NCBI GenBank assembly: GCA_048885865.1
Contig: JBHLLF010000054.1
Location: forward strand, 1-15,492
Direction of reading: 5' to 3'
From: Candidatus Hermodarchaeota archaeon
Lineage (GTDB): Archaea > Asgardarchaeota > Thorarchaeia > Thorarchaeales > Thorarchaeaceae
Length of the DNA: 15,492 bases
Below, piece after piece: positions 1 to 15,321 of the stretch. The notes beneath the pieces are model-generated. The model saw nothing but the letters and a program-made list of their open reading frames with translations, searched no databases and was not told the origin of the DNA. The position numbers were made by a program, and so were the translations under genes. Position 1 is the stretch's first letter, and each line of letters begins with the position of its first letter.

Positions 1-55
1 TTGTTGGATATCGAAGACTGGTGAACGTAGGATGTTCCTCCTAAAGCCACATTTG

Positions 56-1507
56 CTAACCTGTTTTCGGAAATAAATATTCAATTAAGTATAAAAATGA
101 ATCGGTCTTTCGTAAATTCCACGCAGAGCGCGAATTCAAATCTCGCCCGGTCCACCATTTCTCCCTGTGAGTTGAACAGTCCATTAACTCCATCTGGAGC
201 GTTTGGTTTACGGGTCCTATTATTTGATTGCTCACAGTCTGGGATGAGAGAAGCTGCTGTCCGGGAGCAGTGTATTCTATAATTCCTCCAACCATCGTCA
301 TCAGGACCTCTATGTCAGCAAGAGTATCTTCTGGAACGGTCAATGGGTTATCTGAGAGAATAACCAGGTCTGCAAGTTTGCCCACCTTAATGCTCCCCTT
401 CACATCCTCTTGGAATGAGGCATAAGCAGCATCAATTGTAAGGAGTCGGAGCGCTTGTTCTGCAGTGAGAGTCTGATTCAACATTTGAGCTGTGGGAGGG
501 ATTCCCAGCTCGCCAACCCTAGTGACCGCCCTGGAAATTGCTTTCATTGTTGAATGTATAGAACCCCAATTCGAGGGAAAGTCAGTACTTCCGACTGAGG
601 GAACTCCTGCCTGAACAATATCTCGCCATCTTGCAACAGGGAGTTCTCCGTTGTGTAGGTCTGCAAATATCTGCTCATCACCTGATGCCGCTAAGTAGTC
701 TGAATGGTGCCAGGTGAGCTGGAAGGAGGCAATGATTCCAAGGTCACTCATTCTCTGAATCTGGTCGTCTCTGAGAAGGACAAGGTGTTCGATACGATGA
801 CGATATTGTTGGTTCGATTCCCCATCCAAGGTTGATTCTAGAGCATTAAGGGCAATATCTGTCCCATTGTGGATTATACTGTGAATGGCTATCTGGAACC
901 CTGCTTCATGAGCCTCCTGTACTAGTGAATTCAGCTCTGTCTGATTGAAAAAGTGATCATAATTTTGGAACGTGCCTTCATTGAATATCTTCACCCCACC
1001 AATCCGCAACTTCGAACTGAATTCCTGTCTAGGTTGGTAGGCATGATACCAATCGCCAAATCTTTCAAATTGCCAGTTCAATGGGAGATAAGCATTGACT
1101 CGAACACGCAAGCCGACTCGATTCTCATAGCTTATCAGCGAGTCCAGGCACTCTTGATGTGCGTTCAGTTCTGAAACACTTGTCCATCCAGATCTTAACA
1201 CAGTGTCAATTGCTTCTTCTGTTGTTGATATATTCACTCTCCATGACAAATCATGGAACCAATGGCAATGCGAGTCGATGAATCCAGGAACCAGCGTTCG
1301 TCCATCAAGGTCTATGAGTTGTGTGTTTGGCCCCGCCATCGTGAGGGTATCATTCGAATCTCCCATGGCGATGATATACTCACCTTGGATGGCTACTGCC
1401 TCTACTTGTGAAGGGGATTCTTCCATGGTAAGAACTATACCGTTGTGGAAAATAATATCGGGGGAAGTTTCGCTTGGCCTCCAAAATCCCTGTGATCCAA
1501 GATACAA
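56..1507 (-). CDS. Metal-dependent amidohydrolase (YtcJ/Amidohydro_3-like); true start possibly upstream at 1570, adding an N-terminal membrane anchor
   Basis: Motifs IDLDGRTLVPGFIDSHCH (HxH), QIAIHSI, HRIEHL, GSTDFP and KGSIKVGKLADLVILSDNP. The frame stays open upstream of the TTG at 1507 through a hydrophobic stretch. The C-terminal tail reads through repeat R1. Confidence 0.9.
   Translation of the reverse strand: MYLGSQGFWRPSETSPDIIFHNGIVLTMEESPSQVEAVAIQGEYIIAMGDSNDTLTMAGPNTQLIDLDGRTLVPGFIDSHCHWFHDLSWRVNISTTEEAIDTVLRSGWTSVSELNAHQECLDSLISYENRVGLRVRVNAYLPLNWQFERFGDWYHAYQPRQEFSSKLRIGGVKIFNEGTFQNYDHFFNQTELNSLVQEAHEAGFQIAIHSIIHNGTDIALNALESTLDGESNQQYRHRIEHLVLLRDDQIQRMSDLGIIASFQLTWHHSDYLAASGDEQIFADLHNGELPVARWRDIVQAGVPSVGSTDFPSNWGSIHSTMKAISRAVTRVGELGIPPTAQMLNQTLTAEQALRLLTIDAAYASFQEDVKGSIKVGKLADLVILSDNPLTVPEDTLADIEVLMTMVGGIIEYTAPGQQLLSSQTVSNQIIGPVNQTLQMELMDCSTHREKWWTGRDLNSRSAWNLRKTDSFLYLIEYLFPKTG
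135..157 (+). repeat. R1: tRNA-Ala 3'-end repeat, exact consensus
   Basis: ttcaaatctcgcccggtccacca, preceded by gcgaa (partial T-stem complement) and followed by tttctccc. Confidence 0.95.
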
Positions 1508-1635
1508 GAGAAACGCTAGTAGTATTGCGAGTACGAGAGATGTAGCTATAAGCAGTCCGCGTCGTGTCGTTGAATCAGCTCCTTGACCTCAAATAGGAGG
1601 AATTCCAATGTCTGAGGTCAGATAATAATCATCCG

Positions 1636-1658
1636 TTCAAATCTCGCCCGGTCCACCA
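1636..1658 (+). repeat. R2: tRNA-Ala 3'-end repeat, exact consensus
   Basis: (g)ttcaaatctcgcccggtccacca followed by ttcattttct. Confidence 0.95.
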
Positions 1659-1680
1659 TTCATTTTCTCAGTGTGATGTT

Positions 1681-2187
1681 CTATGAGTCTTTAAGAACTG
1701 ATACACGTGCTTTCTTAATCTCGTTGTAAAGGTATTCTATTTCTCCAAAGATATCTGCATTTTCCCAAATCGCCTCGAGTTCCGAAGCTATGGGTATGAA
1801 TCGTTCCCAGAAACTTGTGACCATGATAGCTAATCCGCGCGGCATATACCTGATGTCTGTTAGCTTGTTTCTCACAAGAGAGCCCAAGCTATCAAACTGC
1901 ATTGAAACCCGAACGAAGATATTGTAATCTGTGAGATTTTCTGGATCTCCATACTTGGCTGCAAAATCATTGGCATCAGTCCAAGTCCATTTCCTAATAA
2001 TTTGAAAGAAATCATTGAAGAAATCTACCTTAGATACTTCTGAATGAAAGTTCAGGAAGATTTGAGCTTGTCTCGATCTAGTTGCATTTCTTGTTGAAAC
2101 ATAGATGGACACCATACTAAAGACTACGCCAATTACAACGCTTGAGGCTGCAATCATGATCGAAATGGTCTGAGAGTCCAATTGCAC
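1681..2187 (-). CDS. Hypothetical protein with N-terminal TM helix (DUF4760-like archaeal family)
   Basis: 168 aa with GTG start. An N-terminal hydrophobic helix is followed by RSRQAQIFL...WTWTDANDFAAKYG...FDSLGSLV...FWERF...EIEYLYNE. Family recognised from memory, not searched. It is the only gene between R2 and R3. Confidence 0.75.
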   Translation of the reverse strand: MQLDSQTISIMIAASSVVIGVVFSMVSIYVSTRNATRSRQAQIFLNFHSEVSKVDFFNDFFQIIRKWTWTDANDFAAKYGDPENLTDYNIFVRVSMQFDSLGSLVRNKLTDIRYMPRGLAIMVTSFWERFIPIASELEAIWENADIFGEIEYLYNEIKKARVSVLKDS

Positions 2188-2263
2188 AGTTATTCATCAA
2201 CCTGTAGAGAGTACTGTCATTGACTCCACCAGACCCCGATAAAATCCCTTCGAGGACAAAGAC

Positions 2264-2286
2264 TTCAAATCTCGCCCGTTCCACCA
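2264..2286 (+). repeat. R3: tRNA-Ala 3'-end repeat, 1 mismatch
   Basis: ttcaaatctcgcccgTtccacca followed by tttcttatt. Confidence 0.95.
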
Positions 2287-2307
2287 TTTCTTATTGCTTC
2301 TGATATA

Positions 2308-2796
2308 TCATTCAAGACTTATTTTCTCCCTTGCCTGTTCATAGACCTCTTCGGTGCCTTCAATGAGTTTCACCACAAGTCCATGCAGCTGCTGTATCTC
2401 GCTTGGACTTAGAGACTTGAATAGAGAGAACATGGCCGCACTATGTTCCGGAAATCTGGAATCCCAATACTCCTGATTCCTAGGAGTCAGAATCAAGAGC
2501 CATCTCCTCTTATCCTTCTCATCTCGAATCATTTTGACAAAACCCCTCTTCTCTAGATTATTAGCAATTGCTTTCACATTCTGATGACTGGTGCTTAGTA
2601 GTTCAGCGACTTCACTAACGGAAGGAGGGCTGGTGAATCCGTGGCCAATTGCCATGAGAACCAGAAGTTGTTTGGTAGTAAGTCCATCTCTTCTTAGTAT
2701 CTTATCAGTGATATACTCAAATCTTCGACTTAGAATAAAGAGATAGCCGAAGGAGTCCGCCATAGTCTGAGAAAACTCCTCACTCATTTCCAGCAC
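2308..2796 (-). CDS. MarR-family winged-helix transcriptional regulator
   Basis: GLTTKQLLVL...PSVSEVAELLSTSHQNVKAIANNLEKRGFVKMIRDEKDKRRWLLILT gives the HTH plus the DxDxR wing motif. Start is GTG 2796 or ATG 2787. Confidence 0.92.
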   Translation of the reverse strand: MLEMSEEFSQTMADSFGYLFILSRRFEYITDKILRRDGLTTKQLLVLMAIGHGFTSPPSVSEVAELLSTSHQNVKAIANNLEKRGFVKMIRDEKDKRRWLLILTPRNQEYWDSRFPEHSAAMFSLFKSLSPSEIQQLHGLVVKLIEGTEEVYEQAREKISLE

Positions 2797-2851
2797 CCGT
2801 TGTTCCTAGACTACAGAATCCTTCCGCCATCTTAACTCTAACTCCCATTCC

Positions 2852-3739
2852 TCAAGTCCTTCGGATCTTGCTCTTGATCAAGTACAAGAGCCCTGCGTAA
2901 GATAGGACTCCTAGAATTGGGAATATTACTAGACCAGCCGCTGCAGCGCCTGCGACTTCAGGATCCCCGCTTAAAACTTGGACTATTGCCATGGCATTCA
3001 CGGCAGTTCCCATGGTTATGAAGAAACCAAAGAATAGAAGGATGATGGGATATGCCTTCTTTGGTCTTGTAATAAGTAGGTACAGAGCCATGTAGCCCAA
3101 CGGTATTGTGATGCCCAGATCAAGATACCTTATGACCCAGAATACTGTGGGAGTTGATGCATACGATCCTGAGGAGGTGTTTCCTGTTTCAAGCACCTCA
3201 AAGACTTCTGAGGACCACATCATTGCAAAGAACAAGAGGAAGATGGCCATCAGCCCTACATAGATGTACAAGCTTCTACGATTGAACTCTGAAGCATCCT
3301 CATCACCAAACATGGAGAGGCTACTGGTTCCGAGAATCAATCCACCAATGATCAGCATCAAGAATAATCCAAAGTAGTTCTCGATGTTTCCAGAATATGC
3401 TACGTTACTCCACTCTTGACCAATACCATATGAAAGGCCGGTATAGATCAATGTGATTGGAGTGAGGATTAGAAAGTACTTTGATCCTTCTCGTTGCATG
3501 AGATGAAGAAGGCCACCAATAAACAGGAGCGGTGCCATTAGAAGCAGTCCAACTAAATCCTGGCCCATCGTTTGATATATGGCAGACTGCGAAGTTCGGT
3601 GCTCCATAACACCGAAACCAAGAGGACCAAGAAAGGCTATTGTGATTAGGATTCCTGCACAGACCATTGCCACTATTCCAATAACATATCGTTCGAATTT
3701 CTCATGACCCAACTCTACATGTGATTCGCCTGACATCAC
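2852..3739 (-). CDS. Polytopic membrane protein of unknown function (about 8 TM helices)
   Basis: 295 aa with repeated hydrophobic segments and GQD.V.L and YLDLG...P motifs. It lies 3 bp from the upstream gene, consistent with an operon. Confidence 0.85.
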   Translation of the reverse strand: MMSGESHVELGHEKFERYVIGIVAMVCAGILITIAFLGPLGFGVMEHRTSQSAIYQTMGQDLVGLLLMAPLLFIGGLLHLMQREGSKYFLILTPITLIYTGLSYGIGQEWSNVAYSGNIENYFGLFLMLIIGGLILGTSSLSMFGDEDASEFNRRSLYIYVGLMAIFLLFFAMMWSSEVFEVLETGNTSSGSYASTPTVFWVIRYLDLGITIPLGYMALYLLITRPKKAYPIILLFFGFFITMGTAVNAMAIVQVLSGDPEVAGAAAAGLVIFPILGVLSYAGLLYLIKSKIRRT

Positions 3740-3742
3740 TCA

Positions 3743-4186
3743 TCACCTCATTGAAGCATCCAGGGATGGTCCGCCTATTTGGAAAAACACTGTTCTGTTG
3801 ATGACTAGGTAAATCAAGACCAGTACAGGAACAACAAAACCCATTATGGCTGTATACTGAATGGTCATACCCCAGATGTCAAAGACTATGGTTCCTAGAA
3901 TCACCATCATGGTGCCTAGAAAACCCCATCTCTTCTTCTGCCAGAAGCCAATTGCTACAATGAAACCTGAAACTCCCAAGAATAGGAAGATTGTGACTAG
4001 TATATTCGTGGTGCTCTGGAAAACTGGAATATCAAGCAACTGAACCCCGGTTGCCGCCATACAGCCAAAAAGCAAACGAAGAGCTGCATTTCCAACCCAT
4101 ACCATGAATAGCACGAAGAAGAGAAAGCTCCGACCAAAGATTCGATGCTTCCGTTTTTCTTGATTGTTTTCTGTCATTACATTCAC
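3743..4186 (-). CDS. Small membrane protein (about 4 TM), first gene of the MarR operon
   Basis: 147 aa with four hydrophobic segments and a GFWQKKRWG loop. Start is GTG 4186 or ATG 4177. Confidence 0.8.
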   Translation of the reverse strand: MNVMTENNQEKRKHRIFGRSFLFFVLFMVWVGNAALRLLFGCMAATGVQLLDIPVFQSTTNILVTIFLFLGVSGFIVAIGFWQKKRWGFLGTMMVILGTIVFDIWGMTIQYTAIMGFVVPVLVLIYLVINRTVFFQIGGPSLDASMR

Positions 4187-4192
4187 CCAAAT

Positions 4193-4235
4193 TAGGTATT
4201 ATACTACCTAAATAGGTATCATACTACCTTTTAAA
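4193..4235 (-). promoter_or_regulatory. Tandem palindromic operator (TAGGTA-N6-TACCTA, two copies) overlapping an archaeal TATA-like box; probable MarR site
   Basis: taggtattatactaccta at 4193-4210 and taggtatcatactacctt at 4213-4230 (20-bp period). The minus strand reads TTTAAAAG at 4235-4228, immediately upstream of the 3-gene operon. Confidence 0.75.
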
Positions 4236-4309
4236 TGCTTCGGGAGGGTATAGTGCCACCTAATCTTTCGGTGTCGTTTAGAATAGAGATTCAAAGTAGT
4301 AGATGAAAC

Positions 4310-4332
4310 TTCAAATCTCGTCCGGTCCACCA
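4310..4332 (+). repeat. R4: tRNA-Ala 3'-end repeat, 1 mismatch
   Basis: ttcaaatctcgTccggtccacca followed by cttcttcttt. Confidence 0.95.
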
Positions 4333-4350
4333 CTTCTTCTTTGGCCAACC

Positions 4351-5112
4351 TTATCTAGGTCTACAGATAACAATCTGAACACCCGAGTCTGAATCGAAAG
4401 GTTGACCGTCATAGCCCCCATATTTCTGTTCAATTTCAAAGCCATTATAGTAGAGCAGCGCATCAAGTTCCTGAGGAAAGAACATTCTCATGTTGACAGA
4501 GTGCGTTTCTTCTCTTTCTCCTAGTTTGAAATGCAGCTGTAATTTGTTGATCTGAGTAGCACTATCGTATTTGTTGCTCTCAGTGATGGTGACTGTTCCG
4601 TTTCCATCAGGATCAGGATACTCCGCATGTGGAAACTTTTCTGATGGATTTCTTGTAAGAATTGCAAGGCTAGGATTGAAGAAATCAAAGATGAATCTAC
4701 CATCATCAGTAAGGTGGTGTTTCACGCAAGATAGACAGCCCTCTACATCCTCTCTTGTTTCCAAGTGTGCAAAAGCAATCCCAGTCATCAGGATTAGTTT
4801 GAACTTCTTATTCAATTCGAAGTTGGTCATATCGCCCCGGATGAATTCGATATCCAATCCCCTTTCTTTGACTTTTTGCCTTGCAAGGTCTAACATTGCC
4901 TTTGAAAAATCAAGTCCAGTAATGGAAACCTCCTGAGCAAGTGGTATTGTAAGCCTACCAGTCCCACATGCAAGCTCGAGAACAGGACCTTGATATTTCC
5001 GTGTTTGCTGTAGATAGAATTCCAAACCAGAATCAGTCTGGCCCCTGACATCAAGCATTAGGTCATAATGCCGGCCGTCTGAATATATCCACGGATCCTT
5101 GGTTTCTTTCAT
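4351..5112 (-). CDS. Class I SAM-dependent methyltransferase
   Basis: Motif I VLELACGTGRL, plus ITGLDFSKAML, FIRGDMTNF and HLTDDGRFIFD. It is the only gene between R4 and R5. Confidence 0.93.
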   Translation of the reverse strand: MKETKDPWIYSDGRHYDLMLDVRGQTDSGLEFYLQQTRKYQGPVLELACGTGRLTIPLAQEVSITGLDFSKAMLDLARQKVKERGLDIEFIRGDMTNFELNKKFKLILMTGIAFAHLETREDVEGCLSCVKHHLTDDGRFIFDFFNPSLAILTRNPSEKFPHAEYPDPDGNGTVTITESNKYDSATQINKLQLHFKLGEREETHSVNMRMFFPQELDALLYYNGFEIEQKYGGYDGQPFDSDSGVQIVICRPR

Positions 5113-5181
5113 TATTGTTCAAATGATAACCTGAATACTTCCTTAAGAGATTCACCAGTTTTTGAGCCAACCAAAGAACTT

Positions 5182-5204
5182 GTCAAATCTCGCCCTGTCC
5201 ACCA
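5182..5204 (+). repeat. R5: tRNA-Ala 3'-end repeat, 2 mismatches
   Basis: GtcaaatctcgcccTgtccacca followed by ttctttt. Confidence 0.92.
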
Positions 5205-5262
5205 TTCTTTTGCCATCAACTTAATAGAGGGACACACTTGCAACGAATTGGAGGCTTTACAT

Positions 5263-5832
5263 TTGAAGGTCCTAATTGCCTATTGTACCAGATATGGAGC
5301 CACAGCAAGTACATCCGAGGAGATTGCCAATGGACTTCGGCAAGAGGGCTTTGATGTCCGAGTTGTCAATACGAAGAAGGAGAAAGTCAAGAGCGTTTCT
5401 GAATATGACCTCGTGATTGTTGGAGCAGGATTGCAGATGTTTAGATGGTGCAAAGAATCGGAGAAGTTTCTGAAGAAGTTTCAGAAAGATCTTCAAGCCA
5501 TAAGGACTGCCATCTATGTATCATCCGGAGCGATAGCAGTTATGGAGCATGATGGGCAAACAGAAGAAATGGAAGACCATTGGCAGAAGCATCTTGTTGA
5601 CAAGGCAGAGGAGTACTCCATTGATCCTATAGCAATTGGTAGGTTCGGTGGCATATGGGATTACAACAAGATGAACTTCGTATTCAGGAAGAGCATGGGT
5701 CCTTTTCAAATGAAGCTTGAAGAGGTTGGGATAAAAGAAGTCGAACCTGGAGTCTATGATACACGCGATTGGGATGAGATTCGAGGATGGACAAAGAATC
5801 TTGCACAGAGGGTGAGAGGGAATGAAACGTAA
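5263..5832 (+). CDS. Flavodoxin-domain protein (HemG/Flavodoxin_5-like)
   Basis: KVLIAYCTRYGATASTSEEIA (FMN phosphate loop), YDLVIVGAGL, FGG and DTRDWDEIRGW. The ORF track starts at 5248, but the TTG at 5263 follows a GGAGG at 5250-5254 and matches the usual domain start. Confidence 0.88.
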   Translation: MKVLIAYCTRYGATASTSEEIANGLRQEGFDVRVVNTKKEKVKSVSEYDLVIVGAGLQMFRWCKESEKFLKKFQKDLQAIRTAIYVSSGAIAVMEHDGQTEEMEDHWQKHLVDKAEEYSIDPIAIGRFGGIWDYNKMNFVFRKSMGPFQMKLEEVGIKEVEPGVYDTRDWDEIRGWTKNLAQRVRGNET

Positions 5833-6247
5833 GATAATCGCCTTGCTATTGGTGGTTCACGGGTTAATCACATCGATATTCGTGTTTTACATTGAGGACC
5901 CTATGGGAGAAGGGGTTGGATGGAATGGTAGTTCATGGTTATTGACAGGCGCCCTCGATGCTCAGTTAGTTCAGATATTGGGAATAGCTCTATGGGCAGC
6001 TTCCGTGATTGCGTTTGTGCTAGCAGGCATTGCAGTGTTCACAATGCGAGAACAGTGGCGATGGATTGACATCATTGCTTCAATAGTATCTCTTGTGGCA
6101 TACATTCTCTTCTGGAATGGTCTAAGACCAGTTCCTGAGTACTGGATTCTTGGTCCAGTGATATCAGTTGTTACACTTGTTGCCCTGGTCATTGTCCGCT
6201 GGCCTCCTGACGAATGGATATTTGGCACAGAGGCAGGCTCCTCCTAA
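5822..6247 (+). CDS. Small membrane protein (about 4 TM)
   Basis: 141 aa with hydrophobic helices. It overlaps the flavodoxin stop by 11 bp (translational coupling) and ends 12 bp before R6. Confidence 0.8.
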   Translation: MKRKIIALLLVVHGLITSIFVFYIEDPMGEGVGWNGSSWLLTGALDAQLVQILGIALWAASVIAFVLAGIAVFTMREQWRWIDIIASIVSLVAYILFWNGLRPVPEYWILGPVISVVTLVALVIVRWPPDEWIFGTEAGSS

Positions 6248-6259
6248 GGCGGATCCTAT

Positions 6260-6282
6260 ATCAAATCACGCCCGGTCTATCA
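6260..6282 (+). repeat. R6: tRNA-Ala 3'-end repeat, 4 mismatches
   Basis: AtcaaatcAcgcccggtcTaTca, lying between two convergent stop codons. Confidence 0.85.
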
Positions 6283-7029
6283 CTAAGCTCTATCCAAATT
6301 TCGTTTCCATATTTTCTCTATCTTTCGTTCTCGGTTGTAATGGGCCATTTCCCCGCCTATGTTCTTCGTGGTTCCACTCCAGACTGCTAGACCTTCGCTT
6401 ATGCCAAGAAAAAGGACCGTGATGACTCCGCACAAGTCACCAACCAAGATTTGACCAACAAGTCCCAGAGCAAATGATGTAATGATAGTCCAGATTCCTG
6501 CAAAGAAGAAGAACCATTTACGTCTTGCAGGAGTTGCCATTAGAAAGGTCTCATAGTCGATCTTCAGCGTTGGTTCACCGTACATTCCACGGCTCATTCC
6601 TTCAATTCGTATCCCAGCCCACCGCCCCGCAATAAGACGGCCCCAAGAATAGAAGAAGAAGGTGGCTCCAAGTAAACTACCGAGGCGTCTTAGAAATATC
6701 CACCAGTCGATGTCAGTCCAGGAGAAGAATGTTCTCCAATCCAGAGGCACTTCTAGGAGTCTGATATACCAGATGGTGGGTCCAATGACACCAAGAATGG
6801 TCAGCACGATGACACATGGCCAAAGAGGATAGGTCCTTCCTCTTCTCGCCCTGAACAGCAGATTTCTGATGTGTGCTGCTCGCTTGACTTCTGTTGGGTC
6901 TGGATTGGGCTGCTGCTTGATTTGTCTGACAATCTTCCAGAATTGCTTTCGGATTGCTGGTGGTGTGTCTTTGGGATTCTTTGATACAATCTCCCCAATC
7001 TGATTCAACCTTTCAAGTGTAGCAGACAT
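6283..7029 (-). CDS. Membrane protein of unknown function with a basic N-terminal domain
   Basis: 248 aa, ATG start, about 4 TM segments, motifs GRLIAGRWAGIRI and PTLKIDYETFL. The stop codon abuts R6. Confidence 0.8.
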   Translation of the reverse strand: MSATLERLNQIGEIVSKNPKDTPPAIRKQFWKIVRQIKQQPNPDPTEVKRAAHIRNLLFRARRGRTYPLWPCVIVLTILGVIGPTIWYIRLLEVPLDWRTFFSWTDIDWWIFLRRLGSLLGATFFFYSWGRLIAGRWAGIRIEGMSRGMYGEPTLKIDYETFLMATPARRKWFFFFAGIWTIITSFALGLVGQILVGDLCGVITVLFLGISEGLAVWSGTTKNIGGEMAHYNRERKIEKIWKRNLDRA

Positions 7030-7139
7030 TATGCCTAACCATACTAGAGTATTGGGCGAGAGCCTATGAATCCTGACATTCCACTTGCTTCAAAGCTTCT
7101 CTTTTTATTTCACAACAAGGGAGCGGTTCTAGTGATATC

Positions 7140-8174
7140 ATGATCCAATCTAGAAATCTTCTGGTGTCGGTTGGACTTGTTTTAGCAATTATTTGCGTTG
7201 GGGTTACGCTATCGGTTGTGTACTTCTCACAACCCATGGAAGTGCCAACAACAACGACACCAATGGAGGCTCCATTGAATGTTGAGGTCAATCTGATAGG
7301 AGAGATAGATACTGGGGGTTCTGCATTGAGTGTGCATGTGGATGATGATCTCGCTTTCGTGATTGATTTTGGAGAAGACACATCTCATGGGTTAATTATT
7401 GTCAATGTCAGCAATCCATCTCAACCAGAGATACTAGGCACATATCATGCTGGCGGATTACCTTTCGCAATAGAGTCTGTAGATGAGATTGTGTATATTG
7501 CAGACCAGTTCGAAGGACTCAGAATAATCGATATCTCAGACCCAGCTAATCCTGTTGAGATTGAAGGATATGTTGGCAGTGGGATGGCATTTGACTTGGA
7601 AATTGTAGACGACCTCTTGTTCATGGCAGATTATGAGTATGGAATGGTCGTGCTAGATATTAGCTCTCCTAGCAATCCAGTATTTGTTTCAAATCTTGGC
7701 CCTGACTGTGTTCATCTAGAGATTGAAGGGAATGTTGCATACATCGCAGGTGACGGACGCATAAGAGTAGTGGATGTCAGTGATCCACATCATCCAACGC
7801 TTCTAGGCCAGACCATAGAAAGCAGCAGTACTCTGTGGGATCCATCAGTTTCTAATGGCATAATCTACCTAGCCCATCATAGTGGAGATGATGGCGAACT
7901 TCTGATATTTGATGCAGGCGATCCATCGAATATCGAAGAAATAGGTGAATTTGATTCAGAGGGGACATTCCAATCCTTCTTTGTTCAAGACTTGCTGCTG
8001 TATGCCGTTGACTTCGAGAGTGGATTGTACATTCTGGATGTGACTAATTCCATATCACCTGTTGAGAAAGCGAGATTCTCGGATGGGCAACCTTGGGATG
8101 TAACCATCTGCGATGGTTTAGTGTATCTTGTTGGATCGGAAGGTCTGCAAATTCTACAAGTGACTCTAGGCTAG
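7140..8174 (+). CDS. LVIVD-repeat (beta-propeller-like) membrane-anchored or secreted protein
   Basis: N-terminal signal/TM and a Thr/Pro linker, then repeats such as VYIADQFEGLRIIDISDPANP, LFMADYEYGMVVLDISSPSNP and LYAVDFESGLYILDVTNSISP. Confidence 0.9.
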   Translation: MIQSRNLLVSVGLVLAIICVGVTLSVVYFSQPMEVPTTTTPMEAPLNVEVNLIGEIDTGGSALSVHVDDDLAFVIDFGEDTSHGLIIVNVSNPSQPEILGTYHAGGLPFAIESVDEIVYIADQFEGLRIIDISDPANPVEIEGYVGSGMAFDLEIVDDLLFMADYEYGMVVLDISSPSNPVFVSNLGPDCVHLEIEGNVAYIAGDGRIRVVDVSDPHHPTLLGQTIESSSTLWDPSVSNGIIYLAHHSGDDGELLIFDAGDPSNIEEIGEFDSEGTFQSFFVQDLLLYAVDFESGLYILDVTNSISPVEKARFSDGQPWDVTICDGLVYLVGSEGLQILQVTLG

Positions 8175-8204
8175 TTAATAGAAACATCAATGGGGAAACC
8201 GCGA

Positions 8205-8227
8205 TTCAAATCTCGCCCGGTCCACCA
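8205..8227 (+). repeat. R7: tRNA-Ala 3'-end repeat, exact consensus
   Basis: (gcga)ttcaaatctcgcccggtccacca followed by cttctttcttct. Confidence 0.95.
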
Positions 8228-8391
8228 CTTCTTTCTTCTAATCCATCATCATATGGTTGCCATTCCACTTTCTCAATGATATTTGTCTCAAACCCAATCG
8301 CATAGCCATTCAAAGCAGCAATTGAGGCGTCCTGAAATTCACAATCCTAATATCGGGGGGCAGTAGTCAGATTGGACAGGAGATTGGGCCT

Positions 8392-11016
8392 ATGAGGATT
8401 AGAGTATTCGCTTTCATGATTTTATTATGTGCTTTGATTTCGTTTCCAATTACGGGGTATGCTGATGAGGTGCCTGCTGAATTGAGATTTGATGATGTTG
8501 CGTCAGGACCTTATGTGGACAAGTTGGTCTATAGAACAATTTCATCAGAAAGCAGTCGCGTTCAGGCTCTACTGGATAACGAGATTGACATTCTGGATGG
8601 CCCAATTGATTTCTCCTATATCTCGACTTTGAATTCATCACCTGAGGTCGAGTTGTCTTCTATTCTCAGAAATGGGTATGGGGTATACACAATTAATTGC
8701 GCCAAATACCCGCTGAGTATCTCTTCACTTAGGAGAGCCTTTGCATTAGCGCTTGACAAAGAACGAATTTCTACGGAAGTCTTAGGCGGAAAATCAGTTC
8801 TTCATGACTCCTTAGTACCGCTCGTAAATCCCTTCTGTGCTGAGAATTCGTTGCCAGGCGATTACTATTCGAATTACACAAATGAAGCGAATCAACTCCT
8901 TGATGCTGCGGGATTCTTAGACATCAATGCTGATGGATTCCGAGAAGCACCAGACGGGACGACGTTCCAGATTACCATTGAATATGGTGTCACCCAGCCT
9001 CGGGCCGATTCAATTGCAGTACTTGCAGCAGATGCGTTATCAGCGATAAGCATCAATGTTGATATTTCGCCTGGAGATTCCTATGAGATCCTTTACCGAC
9101 TCTACAGTCATGGGGATTTTGATGTTATTTTCGGGGGTCGCAATTTCTATGACTTTGGCCTTCAGTGGTTGGAGAAGTACTACGATTCCTCCCATAACCA
9201 TCCAGGCGAGAATCCCTCTAACTATATCAACGCCACATTAGATGCCTACATGGATATTTTACTAACTAGCACCAGCTATATGGAAATCTACGATGCTGCG
9301 GAAGAGATACAGAAGATACTCTTCGAGGATAGCCCTGAGATTGTCCTGTATGAGGAATTTTCCTACTCTGCCTATAGAAAGGACCGCTTCGAAGGTCACG
9401 TGGTTGATATTATCAATAATGTCGAAAATGAATGGACAAATCTCAATGTACACCTCACGCCTATAGATGGTGGCCCGTTTACAGGAACTCTTAGAATCGG
9501 CATGAGTGTCTTTCCGAGTACACTCAACCCAATGTTGGCGACCCATTATAGCAACATGGTACTTGACAATCTATTCGCACGTCTTATCAAAATAGGGCCA
9601 GATGGAGAATTCAGGACAGATCTAGCCGGAACCTATCTGGTGGAAACTCATGCAGACAATGCTTCAGTACCAGCAGGCTATATGCGATTTACATTTGATA
9701 TTCTGAGTAATGGATCCTGGAGTGATGGGACTTCTGTAACAGCTGACGATGTAGCCTACTCGTTCAATTATTACATGAATGCTGGTGGAGGGCAATTGGC
9801 TGGGTATCTTGAAGACATGACACTTGCCACTGCTCCAAATTCAAGCCGAGTCATAGTTGAGTTCGACATTGAGTCATACTGGCATCTCTACAGTCTCGCA
9901 AACTTGCCCATCCTTCCACGGTCTATTTTGGAGAGCCTCGGGCCAACAGGATGGAGTTCTTGGGACCCAGTTTTCACCGACCCCTTCCTAACATGCGGTC
10001 CTTTCATTCCAACAGCCTATTCCTTAGACAACTACGTGGAGCTATCTCAAACTACACTCTACCATCATAGAGTCCGAGGCACTGGATCGGCATTACCTTT
10101 TGTGTCAGGGCCTACTGATATGACAGTCATAAACGGGACCACAGGAAGTTCAATTGGCTGGAGCATATCTGATGATAATGCATTGGCTTATTGTATTTCG
10201 AAAAATGGAACTGCAATTGCGGGTGAATATTATGACGCTTCCACCGTTGACCTGGACCTTGATACCTATCTCACTGAATATGGCGTCCACAATTTCACTA
10301 TTCGAGTCCAAGATTGGGATGCTCAGATTAGTATTGATACTGTCCTTGTCGAGTTCTTACCGGACACATTTGCCCCTGATGTGGCAGGACCTGATGACTT
10401 CCTCACCTTTGATGTGTTCACCAGCGGAACTCTGATTAGCTGGACGGTCTTCGATCATAATCCTGCCAGCTATAGTATCCTACTTGATGGCATAGTTGTC
10501 GCGTCTGAAGACTGGACGAGTGCGATGATTTCGATAAGTCATGATATTGGAGTACTAAGTGATGGAGAATATAATTTCACAATCTATCTGGTTGATGACA
10601 AAGGTTACAGCTCAACCGACACTGTGATTGTGACAGTGGTTTCAGATGAAGTTCCACCTGTGATTGACTCGCCGGATGACGTAGTCATGAATTTTGGTGA
10701 ACTGGACCAAACGATACAGTGGAATGCAACTGACTTGTACCCGTATACCTTCACAATATACCTGAACTCTATCGTAAATGTCACAGGTACTTGGGAATCA
10801 GGCGTGTCAATCATCTTCAGTCTTGATGGACTTGAAGCTGGTTCCAACAATGTGACCATTGAGATACGAGATAGTGTGAGCAATGCAGTCACGGATACAG
10901 TGAATGTACTTGTACATCCTCCAGGGTATATACCTCCCGAGGTGCTGTTCTTGACGATTGCAGGGGCCTCAGCGGTTGTTGTGATTGTTGTGATAATACT
11001 CAAGGTTCGGAAATGA
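8392..11016 (+). CDS. ABC transporter substrate-binding protein, family 5 (OppA/DppA-like), with three C-terminal Ig-like repeats and a C-terminal TM anchor
   Basis: Signal peptide; LRRAFALALDKERI, ANQLLDAAGF, GTLRIG...STLNP and WSDGTSVTADDVAYSF; three approximately 93-aa repeats; terminal hydrophobic helix followed by KVRK. A GGAG precedes the ATG. Confidence 0.9.
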   Translation: MRIRVFAFMILLCALISFPITGYADEVPAELRFDDVASGPYVDKLVYRTISSESSRVQALLDNEIDILDGPIDFSYISTLNSSPEVELSSILRNGYGVYTINCAKYPLSISSLRRAFALALDKERISTEVLGGKSVLHDSLVPLVNPFCAENSLPGDYYSNYTNEANQLLDAAGFLDINADGFREAPDGTTFQITIEYGVTQPRADSIAVLAADALSAISINVDISPGDSYEILYRLYSHGDFDVIFGGRNFYDFGLQWLEKYYDSSHNHPGENPSNYINATLDAYMDILLTSTSYMEIYDAAEEIQKILFEDSPEIVLYEEFSYSAYRKDRFEGHVVDIINNVENEWTNLNVHLTPIDGGPFTGTLRIGMSVFPSTLNPMLATHYSNMVLDNLFARLIKIGPDGEFRTDLAGTYLVETHADNASVPAGYMRFTFDILSNGSWSDGTSVTADDVAYSFNYYMNAGGGQLAGYLEDMTLATAPNSSRVIVEFDIESYWHLYSLANLPILPRSILESLGPTGWSSWDPVFTDPFLTCGPFIPTAYSLDNYVELSQTTLYHHRVRGTGSALPFVSGPTDMTVINGTTGSSIGWSISDDNALAYCISKNGTAIAGEYYDASTVDLDLDTYLTEYGVHNFTIRVQDWDAQISIDTVLVEFLPDTFAPDVAGPDDFLTFDVFTSGTLISWTVFDHNPASYSILLDGIVVASEDWTSAMISISHDIGVLSDGEYNFTIYLVDDKGYSSTDTVIVTVVSDEVPPVIDSPDDVVMNFGELDQTIQWNATDLYPYTFTIYLNSIVNVTGTWESGVSIIFSLDGLEAGSNNVTIEIRDSVSNAVTDTVNVLVHPPGYIPPEVLFLTIAGASAVVVIVVIILKVRK

Positions 11017-11052
11017 ACTAGCTAAACAGAGGAATGCTTCCTCGTGGTGGTC

Positions 11053-11075
11053 CCCTGTTCTCGTCAAGTCCACCA
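11053..11075 (+). repeat. R8: decayed tRNA-Ala 3'-end repeat
   Basis: tctcgTcAAgtccacca at 11059-11075 matches 14/17 of the 3' part of the consensus; the T-loop part is lost. The 23-bp-equivalent span begins 36 bp after the SBP stop, where a unit boundary is expected. Confidence 0.6.
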
Positions 11076-11379
11076 TCTCAATTCATTCGAATGGATTGAA
11101 CATGCCATGACTCTTCATCAGAGCCTTGCGCTTGAATGCCATTAACCAAGAATATGACCGGATATCCCTTGTAAGATGCATCCATGGAAGCAGTTTCAGA
11201 TTCCGAATATGTGTTCAAGATGCATCATTTTAGAGGCAAAATCTCAATTCCACACCAAGTTCTTCGGTTTTTGGCTCCATTTGTAGATTTACAGTTGATT
11301 TCGGACCCATTGAGTTTGCGCAGATAGATATTCTATCTGAGTGACTCATGCAATATTGAAGAGACCCTGAGGAAGATAG

Positions 11380-12927
11380 ATGATGAGAACCACGCGACAA
11401 ACGAGAGCAATCCTGGTAATGAGTTTGGCCTTCCTCTTGCCGCTTACAATAATCAGTGTCTTCTATTATCGTCCGCTTTTTGCACCGGTATACTTGGAGC
11501 CATCCGACTCGATTGATGATTTCGTTGAACAATTGGACGCAAAAATCTCTGGATTGCTAGAAACAAATACTGTCCCTGGAGCTGCCATTGCTGTCATTTC
11601 AAATAATCAGACCAATATCATCACAGCTGGTAGGTCAAACCTGTTTGCAAGCGAGCCGCTTACACCGCACCATATTTTTCAAATTGCATCCATGTCCAAG
11701 AGCCAGTGTGCACTTGCGATTATGAAATTGGTGCAAGATGGATTGATTCTACTTGATGCGCCCGTAGAGTGGTATCTGACAAGATGGTCATTTCCGGATT
11801 CTCAATACAACACCTCAGGTGTGACAGTTCGAAGAATACTATGCCATGCAGCTGGTATTTCCTTAGAGGGAGTTTCAGGAGGGTTCAGCCCGGATGATGT
11901 GTATACAATTGAGGACGCATTGACTGAATCAGGAGTGAGTTTGATCTACGAGCCGGGGAGTGTCTTCTCATACTCCGGCGGTGGATATGGAATTCTGCAA
12001 TTGCTCATAGAAGAAGTCAGTGGAATGAGCTACGACGAGTATCTACAATCACAAGTATTTGAACCTCTGAATATGTCAGATACTACAACTGGTTGGGATT
12101 CCTCTATTGAGCATCATCTTGCTGTGGGATACAGTAACATGCTTCTGCCAATTATTCGAACCTATCCTGTAATGAAGGCTGCAGCTGCGCACTACTCAAG
12201 TATCGAAGACATGGCAAAATGGGTGAACCATCTTCTTGTCGGCCAGCCAGTCGTTAATACAACAAATATGCTAGCGATGTACACACCACAATGGGGTGAA
12301 TCGTGGGGTTGGACTCTGGGCTTCAACTACAAGATGCTTAGCAATGGGATACTCACATTAGGTCACGGTGGTGATAATTGGGGGTATCATGGTGCATATC
12401 GTTTCGCACCCGAAGATGGAGAGGCGATTATAGTTCTAACAAATGGTGATCGAGGGGCCGCATTTGTAACAGAGTTGCTGCATCATTGGGAAACTGTTAT
12501 TGAAGGAGGCGATCTGGAAATCCTGTGGGAAGAACAGAATCAAGCCTATGGACAGACATTCCTCTATGAGATCATTACAGTAGTCGGCTTTCTGACTCTG
12601 TTGCTGCTTGCCTGGAAGAGAGGCTTCATTGTTTTCTCTCGAAATGTAGAACAGAAGAGGGTTGGAGAAAGGAGATGGTTCAGAAGAATTGTATCAGTCA
12701 TATGCGTTTTGGCGATTATTATGTTCTTCATTTATTGGGGATATACACCTTTGAGTCCCATATCTTATGGACCCATTAGCTATGTCTGGACTATTATTGC
12801 GCCTCTCACTTGGCTGACTTGGACATCAGTGGCTTTCCAGCAATTCGATTTGGTTTCGGAAAAGACTCCATCTGAAGACATCGTAGAACATCGGATCTCG
12901 CCCGGTCCACCAATTAGAGGAGCATAA
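11380..12927 (+). CDS. Serine hydrolase, beta-lactamase class C/AmpC-like family, membrane-anchored at both ends
   Basis: FQIASMSK (SxxK), TVRRILCHAAG, PGSVFSYSGGGY (catalytic Tyr), VFEPLNMSDT, GHGG and IIVLTNG. One N-terminal TM and about 3 C-terminal TMs. The last codons include R9. Confidence 0.92.
   Translation: MMRTTRQTRAILVMSLAFLLPLTIISVFYYRPLFAPVYLEPSDSIDDFVEQLDAKISGLLETNTVPGAAIAVISNNQTNIITAGRSNLFASEPLTPHHIFQIASMSKSQCALAIMKLVQDGLILLDAPVEWYLTRWSFPDSQYNTSGVTVRRILCHAAGISLEGVSGGFSPDDVYTIEDALTESGVSLIYEPGSVFSYSGGGYGILQLLIEEVSGMSYDEYLQSQVFEPLNMSDTTTGWDSSIEHHLAVGYSNMLLPIIRTYPVMKAAAAHYSSIEDMAKWVNHLLVGQPVVNTTNMLAMYTPQWGESWGWTLGFNYKMLSNGILTLGHGGDNWGYHGAYRFAPEDGEAIIVLTNGDRGAAFVTELLHHWETVIEGGDLEILWEEQNQAYGQTFLYEIITVVGFLTLLLLAWKRGFIVFSRNVEQKRVGERRWFRRIVSVICVLAIIMFFIYWGYTPLSPISYGPISYVWTIIAPLTWLTWTSVAFQQFDLVSEKTPSEDIVEHRISPGPPIRGA
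12890..12912 (+). repeat. R9: tRNA-Ala 3'-end repeat, 3 mismatches, inside the 3' end of a CDS
   Basis: AtcGGatctcgcccggtccacca; the last 18 bp are exact and encode ISPGPP in the serine hydrolase tail. Confidence 0.9.
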
Positions 12928-12985
12928 TACATTGAAGTTGGGTGTTCAGTTTCATCCTATTTCCTTCACAGAGTCATCAGAGCTG

Positions 12986-13465
12986 CTACTCCTCCATCGG
13001 CTCCGAGTTTTGCAAAGCTAGATGTCTGCAAACAATACCGTTAGGAATTGATGTTATCGCAATTGAGAGACCAAGCGTCACAATCAAGGCATCAACGATA
13101 CTAGGAAAGAGTCCACCATAAAGTACGCTAGCAATCAATGCTGTTGATATTGCAACTGGTATTTGAATGAGGCAGAGGACAAAGAAGAGGAGTGCTCCAT
13201 TTCCCAGAAGGACTTGCCAGGTTTGGCCAACGGGCGTGGCCCATAGATGATTGGCAATTGCATGATTGACTGCCCCAATGGCGATGAATATTCCTAGGAA
13301 TATGTAGACAATGACGAACAGAACAATAAGTGGCTCTAGGGTGAGCGGGCGACGGTCATAGCTCAATATCCAGTCAACTAGAAACACAAAGGGGATATAT
13401 CCACCCATCAATAGTGAGTAGAAAACCCCGCCAATGAAGTACTTGTACATAATTTCAAGCTTCAT
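12986..13465 (-). CDS. Hypothetical membrane protein (about 4 TM)
   Basis: 159 aa, ATG preceded by GGAGG on the minus strand, with hydrophobic helices. It is the only complete gene between R9 and R10. Confidence 0.8.
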   Translation of the reverse strand: MKLEIMYKYFIGGVFYSLLMGGYIPFVFLVDWILSYDRRPLTLEPLIVLFVIVYIFLGIFIAIGAVNHAIANHLWATPVGQTWQVLLGNGALLFFVLCLIQIPVAISTALIASVLYGGLFPSIVDALIVTLGLSIAITSIPNGIVCRHLALQNSEPMEE

Positions 13466-13594
13466 TCTGCTTCCTCCTTTGCTTCATTCCTATTCACCAT
13501 AAGGTAGCATGTAAATCGGGTAGTCTTCGCCTCAACTAGGCCAGGTCAATGTGCGTTAAAGAATATCAGATTTTCTGAGCGAGTACTACGCCAG

Positions 13595-13617
13595 TTCAAA
13601 TCTCGCCCGGTCCACCG
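13595..13617 (+). repeat. R10: tRNA-Ala 3'-end repeat, 1 mismatch
   Basis: (g)ttcaaatctcgcccggtccaccG. Confidence 0.95.
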
Positions 13618-13638
13618 CCTATTGTACGATGCTTAAGA

Positions 13639-14631
13639 TCACAATTTCGGAACAATTCGTTCCTTCAGAATCCTGATAGTATCCAATCCATTCTCGCGTA
13701 GGTTTCCAATGAATGGTAGACAGATAGTCACTAACTCAACTTTATCCTTGTATTCTGATAACTTCTCAATCACTACTTCAGGTGGTCCGGCGATTTCTCT
13801 GGTAAGGGCAGCTTCTAGCCACTCTTGCTTCATAGACTCAGTCATTATTTTCTCCAGCCACTCCTGCTTCAAAACAGCCTGCTTCCTCTGTTCATAATCC
13901 TCCTCATCTTCACCGATGACAACCGCAGTTTTACTCACTGACCATCGAATCTCTTGAAAGTCACGCCCTACCTTATCGCACGCAGCTTCAACACGCTTCA
14001 TTTTTTGGGCATATTCAGTTGGCGTTTTACCCTCAAAATCCACTCCATCTCCATATCTAGCTGCAGTTTCTTCCATCATGGGTGCTTCCAAAGTCAAAGT
14101 TCCAATCCAAATTGGGACTCTCGGCCTCTGCATCGGTTTTGGCAGAAACATGGAGTCTTTAATTCTGTAAAACTTGCCATCGAAGCTAGGTCGCTCCTCA
14201 GTCCAAAGGAGTCTGATTATTTGAAGCGCCTCTCTAAGCTGTAGTATTCTTGTCTTAGAAGAAGGAAATGCATAACCATATGCCTCGTACTCCGCTGCTT
14301 TATGTCCGGCCCCAATTCCCAAATCCACTCTTCCGTTGGATGCATTATCTAGATTTGCGACAATTTTCGCAAGAAGTGCTGGATTCCTGTAAGACTGCGA
14401 AGTCACTTGCGTGCCCAGAATAATACGCTCGGTCTGTGGTGTAAGTAATGCAATAGTTGTCCAAGCCTCATAGCAAGGAATCTCTGTCCCTTTTGGATAT
14501 CCAAAGAAATGGTCCGAAATTGAGAATCTGTAGAAGCCTGCATCTTCTGCCGCTTTAGCCAGTACTACAATGTCCTCATAGGAATATCCCGCCTGCGGTT
14601 CAATATGGATACACAGTTTCATTACAGTCAC
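13639..14631 (-). CDS. LLM-class (luciferase-like) oxidoreductase, probably F420-dependent
   Basis: AKAAEDAGF...SDHF, YEAWTT, YRNPALLAKIVANLDNASNGRVDLGIGAG, SFDGKFY and PKPMQRPRVPIWIG. F420 dependence is inferred from the subfamily motifs. Confidence 0.93.
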   Translation of the reverse strand: MTVMKLCIHIEPQAGYSYEDIVVLAKAAEDAGFYRFSISDHFFGYPKGTEIPCYEAWTTIALLTPQTERIILGTQVTSQSYRNPALLAKIVANLDNASNGRVDLGIGAGHKAAEYEAYGYAFPSSKTRILQLREALQIIRLLWTEERPSFDGKFYRIKDSMFLPKPMQRPRVPIWIGTLTLEAPMMEETAARYGDGVDFEGKTPTEYAQKMKRVEAACDKVGRDFQEIRWSVSKTAVVIGEDEEDYEQRKQAVLKQEWLEKIMTESMKQEWLEAALTREIAGPPEVVIEKLSEYKDKVELVTICLPFIGNLRENGLDTIRILKERIVPKL

Positions 14632-14732
14632 CAGACAATTCAGTTCTCATATTGATTGAATCATTTGCATTCATGAGAAACCTTTCTCTCTCCTATTAAC
14701 AGGAAACATCAAAGCAAGCGCCAATTTTCCTG

Positions 14733-15236
14733 TCATTGAGGCCGCTTATATCTAAACCATAAGAGGAGGAGTATTCCAAACGCCAACATTATTGGGATTG
14801 GGATATATAGAGGCACCAAAGGATCACCATCTCCTGGCCAGTCAACCAAGAATACCAAAGGAGCTGATACAAGTACTGGCTGGATTTCTGCTAGGATTCC
14901 TACCAAGAGCGTCCTCCGTGGAGATGTCTTGCCAGCATACAATCTAGCCAGCATTACTGCGAAGATAAGCCTCAGAAGTGTGTAAGGAAGAGTGTCAAGA
15001 GGATTCCAGATTCTGAATCCTGAATACCAGCTGGACTCGATGTAATCCCAAATTATAGCTCTGATGGAATCTGGACCAGGACCCAGATCAACACGATATG
15101 CAAATGGCAGAAGAACGGAAAATGCCAGCATGACTGCAGCCGCAAAAGCAAAGTGCATATTATTCTCGGATTGTGATGAGTCCACCTCTTCCACGCTCAT
15201 TCGGTTGTCTAGGAATTTGTTTTCACTCTTAGTCAT
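14733..15236 (-). CDS. Hypothetical membrane protein
   Basis: 167 aa, ATG start, about 4 hydrophobic segments, ending PIPIMLAFGILLLLWFRYKRPQ. Confidence 0.75.
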   Translation of the reverse strand: MTKSENKFLDNRMSVEEVDSSQSENNMHFAFAAAVMLAFSVLLPFAYRVDLGPGPDSIRAIIWDYIESSWYSGFRIWNPLDTLPYTLLRLIFAVMLARLYAGKTSPRRTLLVGILAEIQPVLVSAPLVFLVDWPGDGDPLVPLYIPIPIMLAFGILLLLWFRYKRPQ

Positions 15237-15298
15237 TATTATTTGAGCAGAGTTTTACCTGGTCCAGCATCCTTTTTGCTCAACCGTAGAACATCAGT

Positions 15299-15321
15299 TT
15301 AAAATCTCGCCCGGACCACCA
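15299..15321 (+). repeat. R11: tRNA-Ala 3'-end repeat, 2 mismatches
   Basis: ttAaaatctcgcccggAccacca followed by gttctatttctt. Confidence 0.92.

Follow-up and report, generated by a model that had tools for sequence, protein, structure and literature searches.

The 15,492-bp stretch of DNA analyzed here (the window) is the whole of contig C54 from the genome of a Thorarchaeota archaeon (G000; 3.58 Mb in 117 contigs, 87% complete), and is best explained as the middle of an accretion array behind a tRNA-Ala(GGC) gene. Each repeat in it is a displaced genomic 3′ end (tail) of this tRNA gene, and the moving unit comprises a tail, a pyrimidine trailer, and one or two genes. Units are swapped at their tails, newer ones lying beside the intact tRNA; the older units lie at a greater distance, and their tails are more decayed. 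No recombinase gene moves along with the units. The same layout recurs at many unrelated anchors in G000. The way in which Asgard archaea take up accessory genes bears on the question of where eukaryote gene content came from, and these arrays, shared by species and genera, record single-gene gains at fixed sites in a form that can be counted and ordered. The array is of interest mainly because many unrelated anchors act alike with no enzyme in view. Below, other G numbers denote genomes of relatives, and g numbers denote genera of the same family.

Displaced tRNA-Ala(GGC) tails as unit boundaries

The repeat motif equals the last 23 nt of tRNA-Ala, from the T loop to CCA. A preliminary description, made from the letters of the window, had placed same-orientation repeats at eleven sites and identified them as tRNA-Ala 3′ ends. 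Both statements held: ten clear copies and one decayed copy lie on the plus strand, separating gene-sized units, and their sequence matches the intact tRNA-Ala(GGC) of relatives. Nine copies are recovered at three or fewer mismatches, against none in 200 shuffles. Exact copies occupy positions 1636 to 1658 and 8205 to 8227; single mismatches occur at 2264 to 2286, 4310 to 4332, and 13595 to 13617, two at 5182 to 5204 and 15299 to 15321, and three at 12890 to 12912, while the copy at 6260 to 6282 is seen once four mismatches are allowed. The strongly decayed copy (11053 to 11075; score of 2.7 on a matrix from relatives) lies between solute-binding and beta-lactamase-family genes and is present, equally decayed, in G015. 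The leftmost copy (111 to 157) consists of part of a T-arm intron (111 to 134) followed by the T loop to CCA (135 to 157), and 46 of 48 nt are as in the intron-bearing intact tRNA-Ala(GGC) of G015. Measured spacings (1501, 628, 2046, 872, 1078, 1945, 2848, 1837, 705, and 1704 bp) agree with the ten units of 628 to 2848 bp described before; these are delimited by repeats as stated, but two prove to be fusions of smaller modules from which the intervening repeat was lost (near 7050 to 7200 and at 14719). Genome-wide, the motif at two or fewer mismatches has 11 matches, clustered as anticipated: eight in the window contig, two in intact tRNA-Ala genes (TGC and CGC), and one at the start of contig C9.

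A scan of the window for tRNA genes and Rfam families returned no match. In relatives, a conserved block of housekeeping genes precedes an intact tRNA-Ala(GGC), from which the array starts, so the intact tRNA-Ala expected at the array end does head the array there; in G000, however, that gene is unassembled between contig C53, which holds the upstream housekeeping block, and the window. On the other side, a G015 contig links the window's end to the start of C9, which carries two more decayed tail copies and a second amidohydrolase unit. Arrays lie behind tRNA-Ala(GGC) in five genera (g1, g3, g5, g7, and g15) and in none of the loci read from other genera; that of G033 has 15 displaced copies across 34 kb.

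Displaced tails keep intron sequence, which indicates that they are genomic DNA and not copies of mature tRNA; an origin by reverse transcription of mature tRNA was rejected on this ground. Some tails hold introns that the array's own tRNA is without, so entry can swap the 3′ half of the tRNA. Such replacement at each entry would explain the patchy intron content of tRNA-Ala(GGC) in the family. Across the family, this gene has zero to three introns (D arm, anticodon, and T arm) in many combinations (L008 1229-1395, L030, L039, L019, and L058-L092). ARAGORN overlooks the multi-intron forms, and its calls with very long introns in array loci were dismissed as artefacts of the repeats. No promoter copies were found upstream of tRNA-Ala. 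Five repeat regions folded no better than shuffles (z of 0.48 to -1.87), with no attC-like or other RNA structure, and the flanks of different repeats have nothing in common beyond the tail.

Units exchanged edge to edge between genomes

The median unit length is 1085 bp, and 84 of 128 units hold a single open reading frame (ORF). Homology of the unit behind the tail at 5182 starts at this tail in five other genomes, at the same first base (5183) in four and within 7 nt in the fifth. Whole units align from first to last base between genomes (544 versus 543 bp at 97.8%; 960 versus 960 bp at 90%). G015 is without window positions 12905 to 15303, repeat to repeat; the tails at 12890 and 15299 form the left and right breaks of this missing 2.4-kb block, and the unit behind the latter runs on into C9. 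Among complete units, 279 of 556 alignment ends fall at unit edges versus about 28 by a crude uniform expectation. Flank-sharing repeat pairs (n = 137, not independent and with some intact tRNAs included) share the upstream flank only in 64 cases, the downstream flank only in 69, and both in 4. Units beside the tRNA in one genome sit internally in others, and tail mismatches climb with rank from the tRNA (means of 2.1, 2.7, and 3.6; rho 0.31, n = 79), in line with the serial integration proposed earlier, entry being polar from the tRNA.

Comparisons of unit order were concordant in 22 cases and discordant in 9, three of the latter being due to the paralogous amidohydrolase; other conflicts include LVIVD versus flavodoxin (G004 versus the window) and two within genus g3. 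The concordant majority (22 of 31) and the frequent contig breaks in these arrays would suit a chimera built by the assembly at the repeat, or a single ancestral array from which units were only deleted. Yet single contig pieces cross repeats, order conflicts persist once the paralogous amidohydrolase is removed, and another genome carries window positions 8204 to 12905 and 6261 to 8227, each at 95%, which makes this explanation highly improbable and largely refutes it. Contigs from public runs cross repeats and also show loose ends at 157 to 162, 1639, 1666, 4341, and 8233; the array is therefore neither chimeric nor fixed in the population. One of these runs, X1, may be the source. The gain, loss, and reordering of cassettes with breakpoints at the repeats, which the preliminary description had predicted, were thus seen in the alignments, the block absent from G015, and the order conflicts, and none of the outcomes that it had named as fatal (a scattered repeat, conserved order, breakpoints off the repeats, or a chimera) occurred. 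Some joints in run contigs were considered as circles and rejected, the short sides being equal to the repeat itself, so that other neighbours are what they show. A single go-back joint was likewise discarded as a sign of a circle, being accounted for by the next repeat on C9.

Unrelated anchors, tail edges, and a proposed mechanism of exchange

In G000, seven other tRNA genes are followed by copies of their tails; nine copies lie downstream and one upstream, all on the same strand, with none on the opposite strand. Tail copies also stand behind protein genes, namely, those for an acyl-CoA dehydrogenase (ACAD; at least eight copies), acs, iscU, mvhD, and others, and uS19 tails divide units on contig C13; these anchor names come from reading of the sequences, not from a family search. 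Upstream of ACAD, two copies of the promoter and first codons form a mirror image of the tail layout. No common sequence is evident among the anchors. The layout is the same at unrelated anchors, among them protein-gene tails and one promoter/start region, so the system is not defined by tRNA-derived att sites, and its earlier definition by them was too narrow.

Several further repeat loci were noted. At the ACAD locus (L111, contig C14; 263-359, 1044-1131, 2053-2149, and 3306-17734), arrays flank both sides of one gene, each pair of copies enclosing cargo. Additional same-strand intergenic repeat families lie between single genes on C20 (75-3490), C106 (1-3451), C42 (16492-21955), C21 (27818-48569), and C19 (7537-11427). 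Parallel arrays with their own tail variant stand behind two tRNA-Val-looking genes in several relatives (L010, L013, L017, L020, L023, and L029). On C88, two tRNA-tail-like copies (6369-6391 and 7592-7614) lie 1.2 kb apart and are inverted, which departs from the direct-repeat rule.

We tentatively favor a reading that is plausible and only narrowly short of probable, in which the units are non-autonomous and pass through a stage as small circles, each closed at one tail, from which a single crossover with the intact gene inserts them, through an anchor-relaxed activity provided in trans. Recombination between the two tails of a unit would release it as a small circle that does not replicate and that would get to another cell by some route; there, one crossover within the intact gene's tail would reinsert it, restoring the tRNA (sometimes with another intron set) and pushing the old tail outward. 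The activity, supplied in trans, would be relaxed about its anchor and prefer tRNA loop positions without being tied to one site, and new, fused, or truncated units may come from imprecise microhomology joins. The circle and the enzyme are the parts that we infer, beyond the observed tail identity, modularity, polarity, and lack of a linked enzyme. A general host function or one broad-range enzyme is more likely as the activity than an integrase dedicated to tRNA-Ala. Should one anchor-relaxed activity be responsible, the arrays would represent a gene-capture route distinct from integrons and from integrase-bearing islands. A wider proposal, which we regard as speculative and unlikely, is that several Thorarchaeota genera may share a genome-wide gene-cassette system run by one undescribed recombination activity, which would use the tail or head of almost any conserved gene for attachment, capture single genes, shuffle them between species, and swap tRNA intron sets as a by-product.

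The window units encode no recombinase; the preliminary description had already stated that no unit encodes an integrase, and had also invoked a trans-acting recombinase and suggested an XerC/D-like tyrosine enzyme at or near the array end. No such enzyme was found in G000: profile searches with PF00589, PF16795, PF07508, PF02371, PF01797, PF04098, and PF04404 gave no match (small serine resolvases, DDE enzymes, and Cas1 were not searched), and this genome, which is 87% complete, yielded no recombinase of the tyrosine, large serine, IS110, Y1, or single-strand annealing type. Searches by tblastn and with a profile from 31 integrase frames of the family returned nothing but zinc-ribbon matches in G000, 169 cargo ORFs, and 1.17 Mb of loci in six frames; no integrase fragment occurs among these ORFs or loci (transfer genes were not searched one by one), and no PF00589 match lies beside the tRNA in relatives. 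Of 81 family genomes, 28 have a tyrosine integrase, and their genera include some with arrays and some without. None of 20 tyrosine-integrase loci of relatives adjoins a tRNA-Ala-type repeat. An XerA-like tyrosine recombinase was not found in G000 and had few family matches (the same 28 of 81), which is unusual if chromosome dimers need resolving. We also noted an operon on C10 (L108 2700-18400), widespread in the family, with a co-oriented second RadA gene, two helicases, a flap nuclease, and membrane proteins. It was rejected as the machinery: 55 of 86 family genomes have the second RadA gene, their genera including some that carry arrays at this tRNA and some that do not, and in several array-bearing genomes the query used did not recover it, a distribution which indicates that the operon does not track the arrays.

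These results bear on two alternatives. Conventional tRNA-specific tyrosine integrases of visiting viruses or integrative elements, one for each anchor, might mobilize tiny satellite cassettes in trans. The integrases scattered through the family fit this possibility, as do the edge peaks at the T loop and anticodon loop and the fixed edges at ACAD and uS19 described below. However, none was detected in the G000 assembly, even by the family-based profile, none of the 20 integrase loci adjoins a repeat of the tRNA-Ala type, the unrelated anchors of this one genome, numbering over a dozen, would call for an equal number of enzymes, and edges also fall in the variable loop and inside introns; we therefore consider it possible, though on balance unlikely. 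The units might instead be cis-mobilizable elements, larger islands with integrases having accreted in tandem and then decayed until one useful gene was left in each. This is an established route to tandem arrays (PMC5704250; 10.1101/2020.12.28.424599), the tails decay outward, and the first units in G018 and G033 measure 10 to 12 kb, but a given gene-sized unit is found in different genomes, and at different positions, with both of its edges unchanged, and the cargo and loci hold no integrase fragment, which renders such decay improbable.

Tail edges provide mixed evidence. Among the tail copies with a perfect 16-nt core, 43 of 64 start within the T loop or T stem. In mature tRNA coordinates, a second group falls at the anticodon loop, others scatter between the two, including the variable loop, and a few lie inside introns; no edge is found beyond the anticodon stem. 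The T loop and the anticodon loop are where integrases classically act within tRNA genes, as Williams reportedly described in 2002. ACAD tails start at -65 to -69 (within 5 nt) in six of nine copies, and uS19 tails behave alike in three of four, whereas those of mvhD and iscU vary; protein-gene anchors showed no enrichment of hairpin context at their edges. The peaks favor an enzyme that prefers certain sites or loops, whereas the scatter, the microhomology joins, the cut cargo in G004, and the number of anchors speak against each site having its own specific integrase. An (A/T)ATC word lies within about 6 nt of the commonest left edges in four prolific arrays (window 135 to 157; C14 near 3309, C13 near 31, and C20 near 75), an after-the-fact observation.

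Microhomology is clear at one join, at 111 to 121, with a few weak others. There, the right end of the preceding unit (1 to 116, plus strand) lacks about 100 bp and meets the intron remnant at a microhomology of 6 of 7 nt; the longer version occurs in G004 and G007, and run X4 has the uncut continuation at 121. This join would be expected if no circles existed and linear DNA anchored by homology at the tRNA while its far end was joined illegitimately within that gene (homology-facilitated illegitimate recombination), leaving a truncated tail each time. Cargo genes that are cut or without a stop, and right-hand joins that differ between copies of one unit, point the same way; any conserved anchor would do, and the process has been proposed for displaced arrays of Vibrio (PMC5361080). 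Nevertheless, edges should then scatter instead of forming peaks, the right edge of many units is constant across several genomes, the process is rare where measured (PMC5361080), and no convincing DNA uptake gene was identified (one weak partial DprA-family match of 68 residues was not used). We judge this explanation quite improbable.

Some of the evidence weighs against the cycling of circles by an anchor-relaxed activity that we favor. The non-random, fixed edges, with their peak at the T loop and T stem, the second group at the anticodon loop, and the constant starts of ACAD and uS19 tails, are what site-specific integrases leave. Contigs of four runs contained no clean circle junction, contigs being prone to drop rare forms. 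Missing integrases prove little because the genome is 87% complete and mobile elements often stay unbinned. Finally, 16 to 23 bp is short for RadA-type recombination.

Related systems and the cargo of the window

Integrons possess IntI, attC hairpins, and mostly co-oriented cassettes. They resemble these arrays in their gene-sized mobile units, polar accretion at one site, and reshuffling, but here there is no attC hairpin and no IntI, the site is a tRNA tail, and cargo ORFs lie on either strand (89 on the tRNA strand and 80 on the opposite one, bearing out the mixed orientation noted previously); the array is not an integron. It does fit the description of an additive island at a tRNA, a kind already known from bacteria, with an intact tRNA followed by same-strand 3′-end copies (in relatives) and content that varies between strains at a fixed locus. 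The preliminary description had not recognized a described system, which does not stand, since recurring tRNA-Lys tails of about 20 nt mark the additive island fGI-2 of "Ca. Methylopumilus" (PMC10872708), and tRNA-fragment repeats mark small cassettes at tRNA hot spots of "Ca. Actinomarinales", where identifiable mobile elements are reported lacking (PMC7771536). In these islands, too, direct repeats of approximately the last 20 nt of a tRNA delimit stacked small cassettes at a fixed locus, and cassette exchange between genera was noted (PMC10872708, PMC7771536). The array differs from them in its Asgard host, the single gene in most units, the reshuffling documented unit by unit, and the occurrence of the same layout at protein-gene tails and a promoter.

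Tycheposon islands of Prochlorococcus are likewise stacked at a tRNA between partial tRNA copies, the new elements pushing the old outward, but carry tRNA-specific tyrosine integrases and leave integrase fragments, none of which was found here (10.1101/2020.12.28.424599). Accretion of integrative and conjugative or mobilizable elements (ICEs and IMEs) yields tandem integrase-less units bounded by copies of a gene's 3′ end, the cis-mobilizable elements (CIMEs); those are decay products beside an active ICE or IME, whereas the present arrays showed neither such a helper nor any trace of decay, and their units recur edge to edge (PMC5704250). In the displacement arrays of type VI secretion system (T6SS) immunity genes and Rhs orphan ends, an old 3′ part is displaced downstream without an integrase, and homology-facilitated illegitimate joining was proposed; the 3′ part of their anchor is variable cargo, whereas the present arrays restore the 3′ end of the anchor and hold cargo unrelated to it (PMC5361080). 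A literature search for such arrays in Asgard archaea, including Thorarchaeota integrons or cassettes, found no paper, most subscription journals lying outside its coverage; two Asgard mobilome papers treat integrase-bearing or giant elements, not such arrays.

The window cargo consists of accessory genes. Unit 1 encodes an amidohydrolase 3 family protein (56 to 1507, minus strand), and unit 8 encodes a beta-lactamase-family serine hydrolase with C-terminal membrane segments (11380 to 12927, plus strand). The earlier statement that the repeat never interrupts a domain holds for both, the Pfam domains ending before it, but the two ORFs run through the repeat, that of unit 1 at 135 and that of unit 8 at 12890, with a stop just past it. 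None of six amidohydrolase copies examined has a stop ahead of the repeat. The amidohydrolase unit occurs twice in G000 (window 56-1507 and L109 125-1576; 70% identical), and the C terminus is read from the antisense of the tRNA tail. Unit 2 holds a DUF4760 protein (1681 to 2187, minus), and unit 3 holds three co-oriented genes on the minus strand (2308 to 4186), for a DUF2127-like protein (3743 to 4186), a membrane protein (2852 to 3739), and a MarR regulator (2308 to 2796). They are followed by a class I S-adenosylmethionine (SAM) methyltransferase in unit 4 (4351 to 5112, minus) and by a flavodoxin-domain protein with a small membrane protein in unit 5 (5248 to 6247, plus), the second gene of which is cut off by a very short tail copy in G004. 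Unit 7 encodes a family 5 solute-binding protein with a C-terminal extension (8392 to 11016, plus), and unit 9 encodes a 159-amino-acid membrane protein without a Pfam match (12986 to 13465, minus).

The two fused units are seen as separate modules elsewhere. Unit 6a, encoding a 248-amino-acid membrane protein without a Pfam match (6283 to 7029, minus), is present without 6b in G016, whereas unit 6b, encoding an LVIVD-repeat protein (7140 to 8174, plus), is present without 6a in G008 and G004. The luciferase-like monooxygenase module, unit 10a (13639 to 14719, minus), has in relatives a closing repeat 26 nt after position 14719 that is lost here, and the module for a 167-amino-acid membrane protein, unit 10b (14724 to 15298, minus), stands behind its own repeat in G014, G007, G009, and G016.

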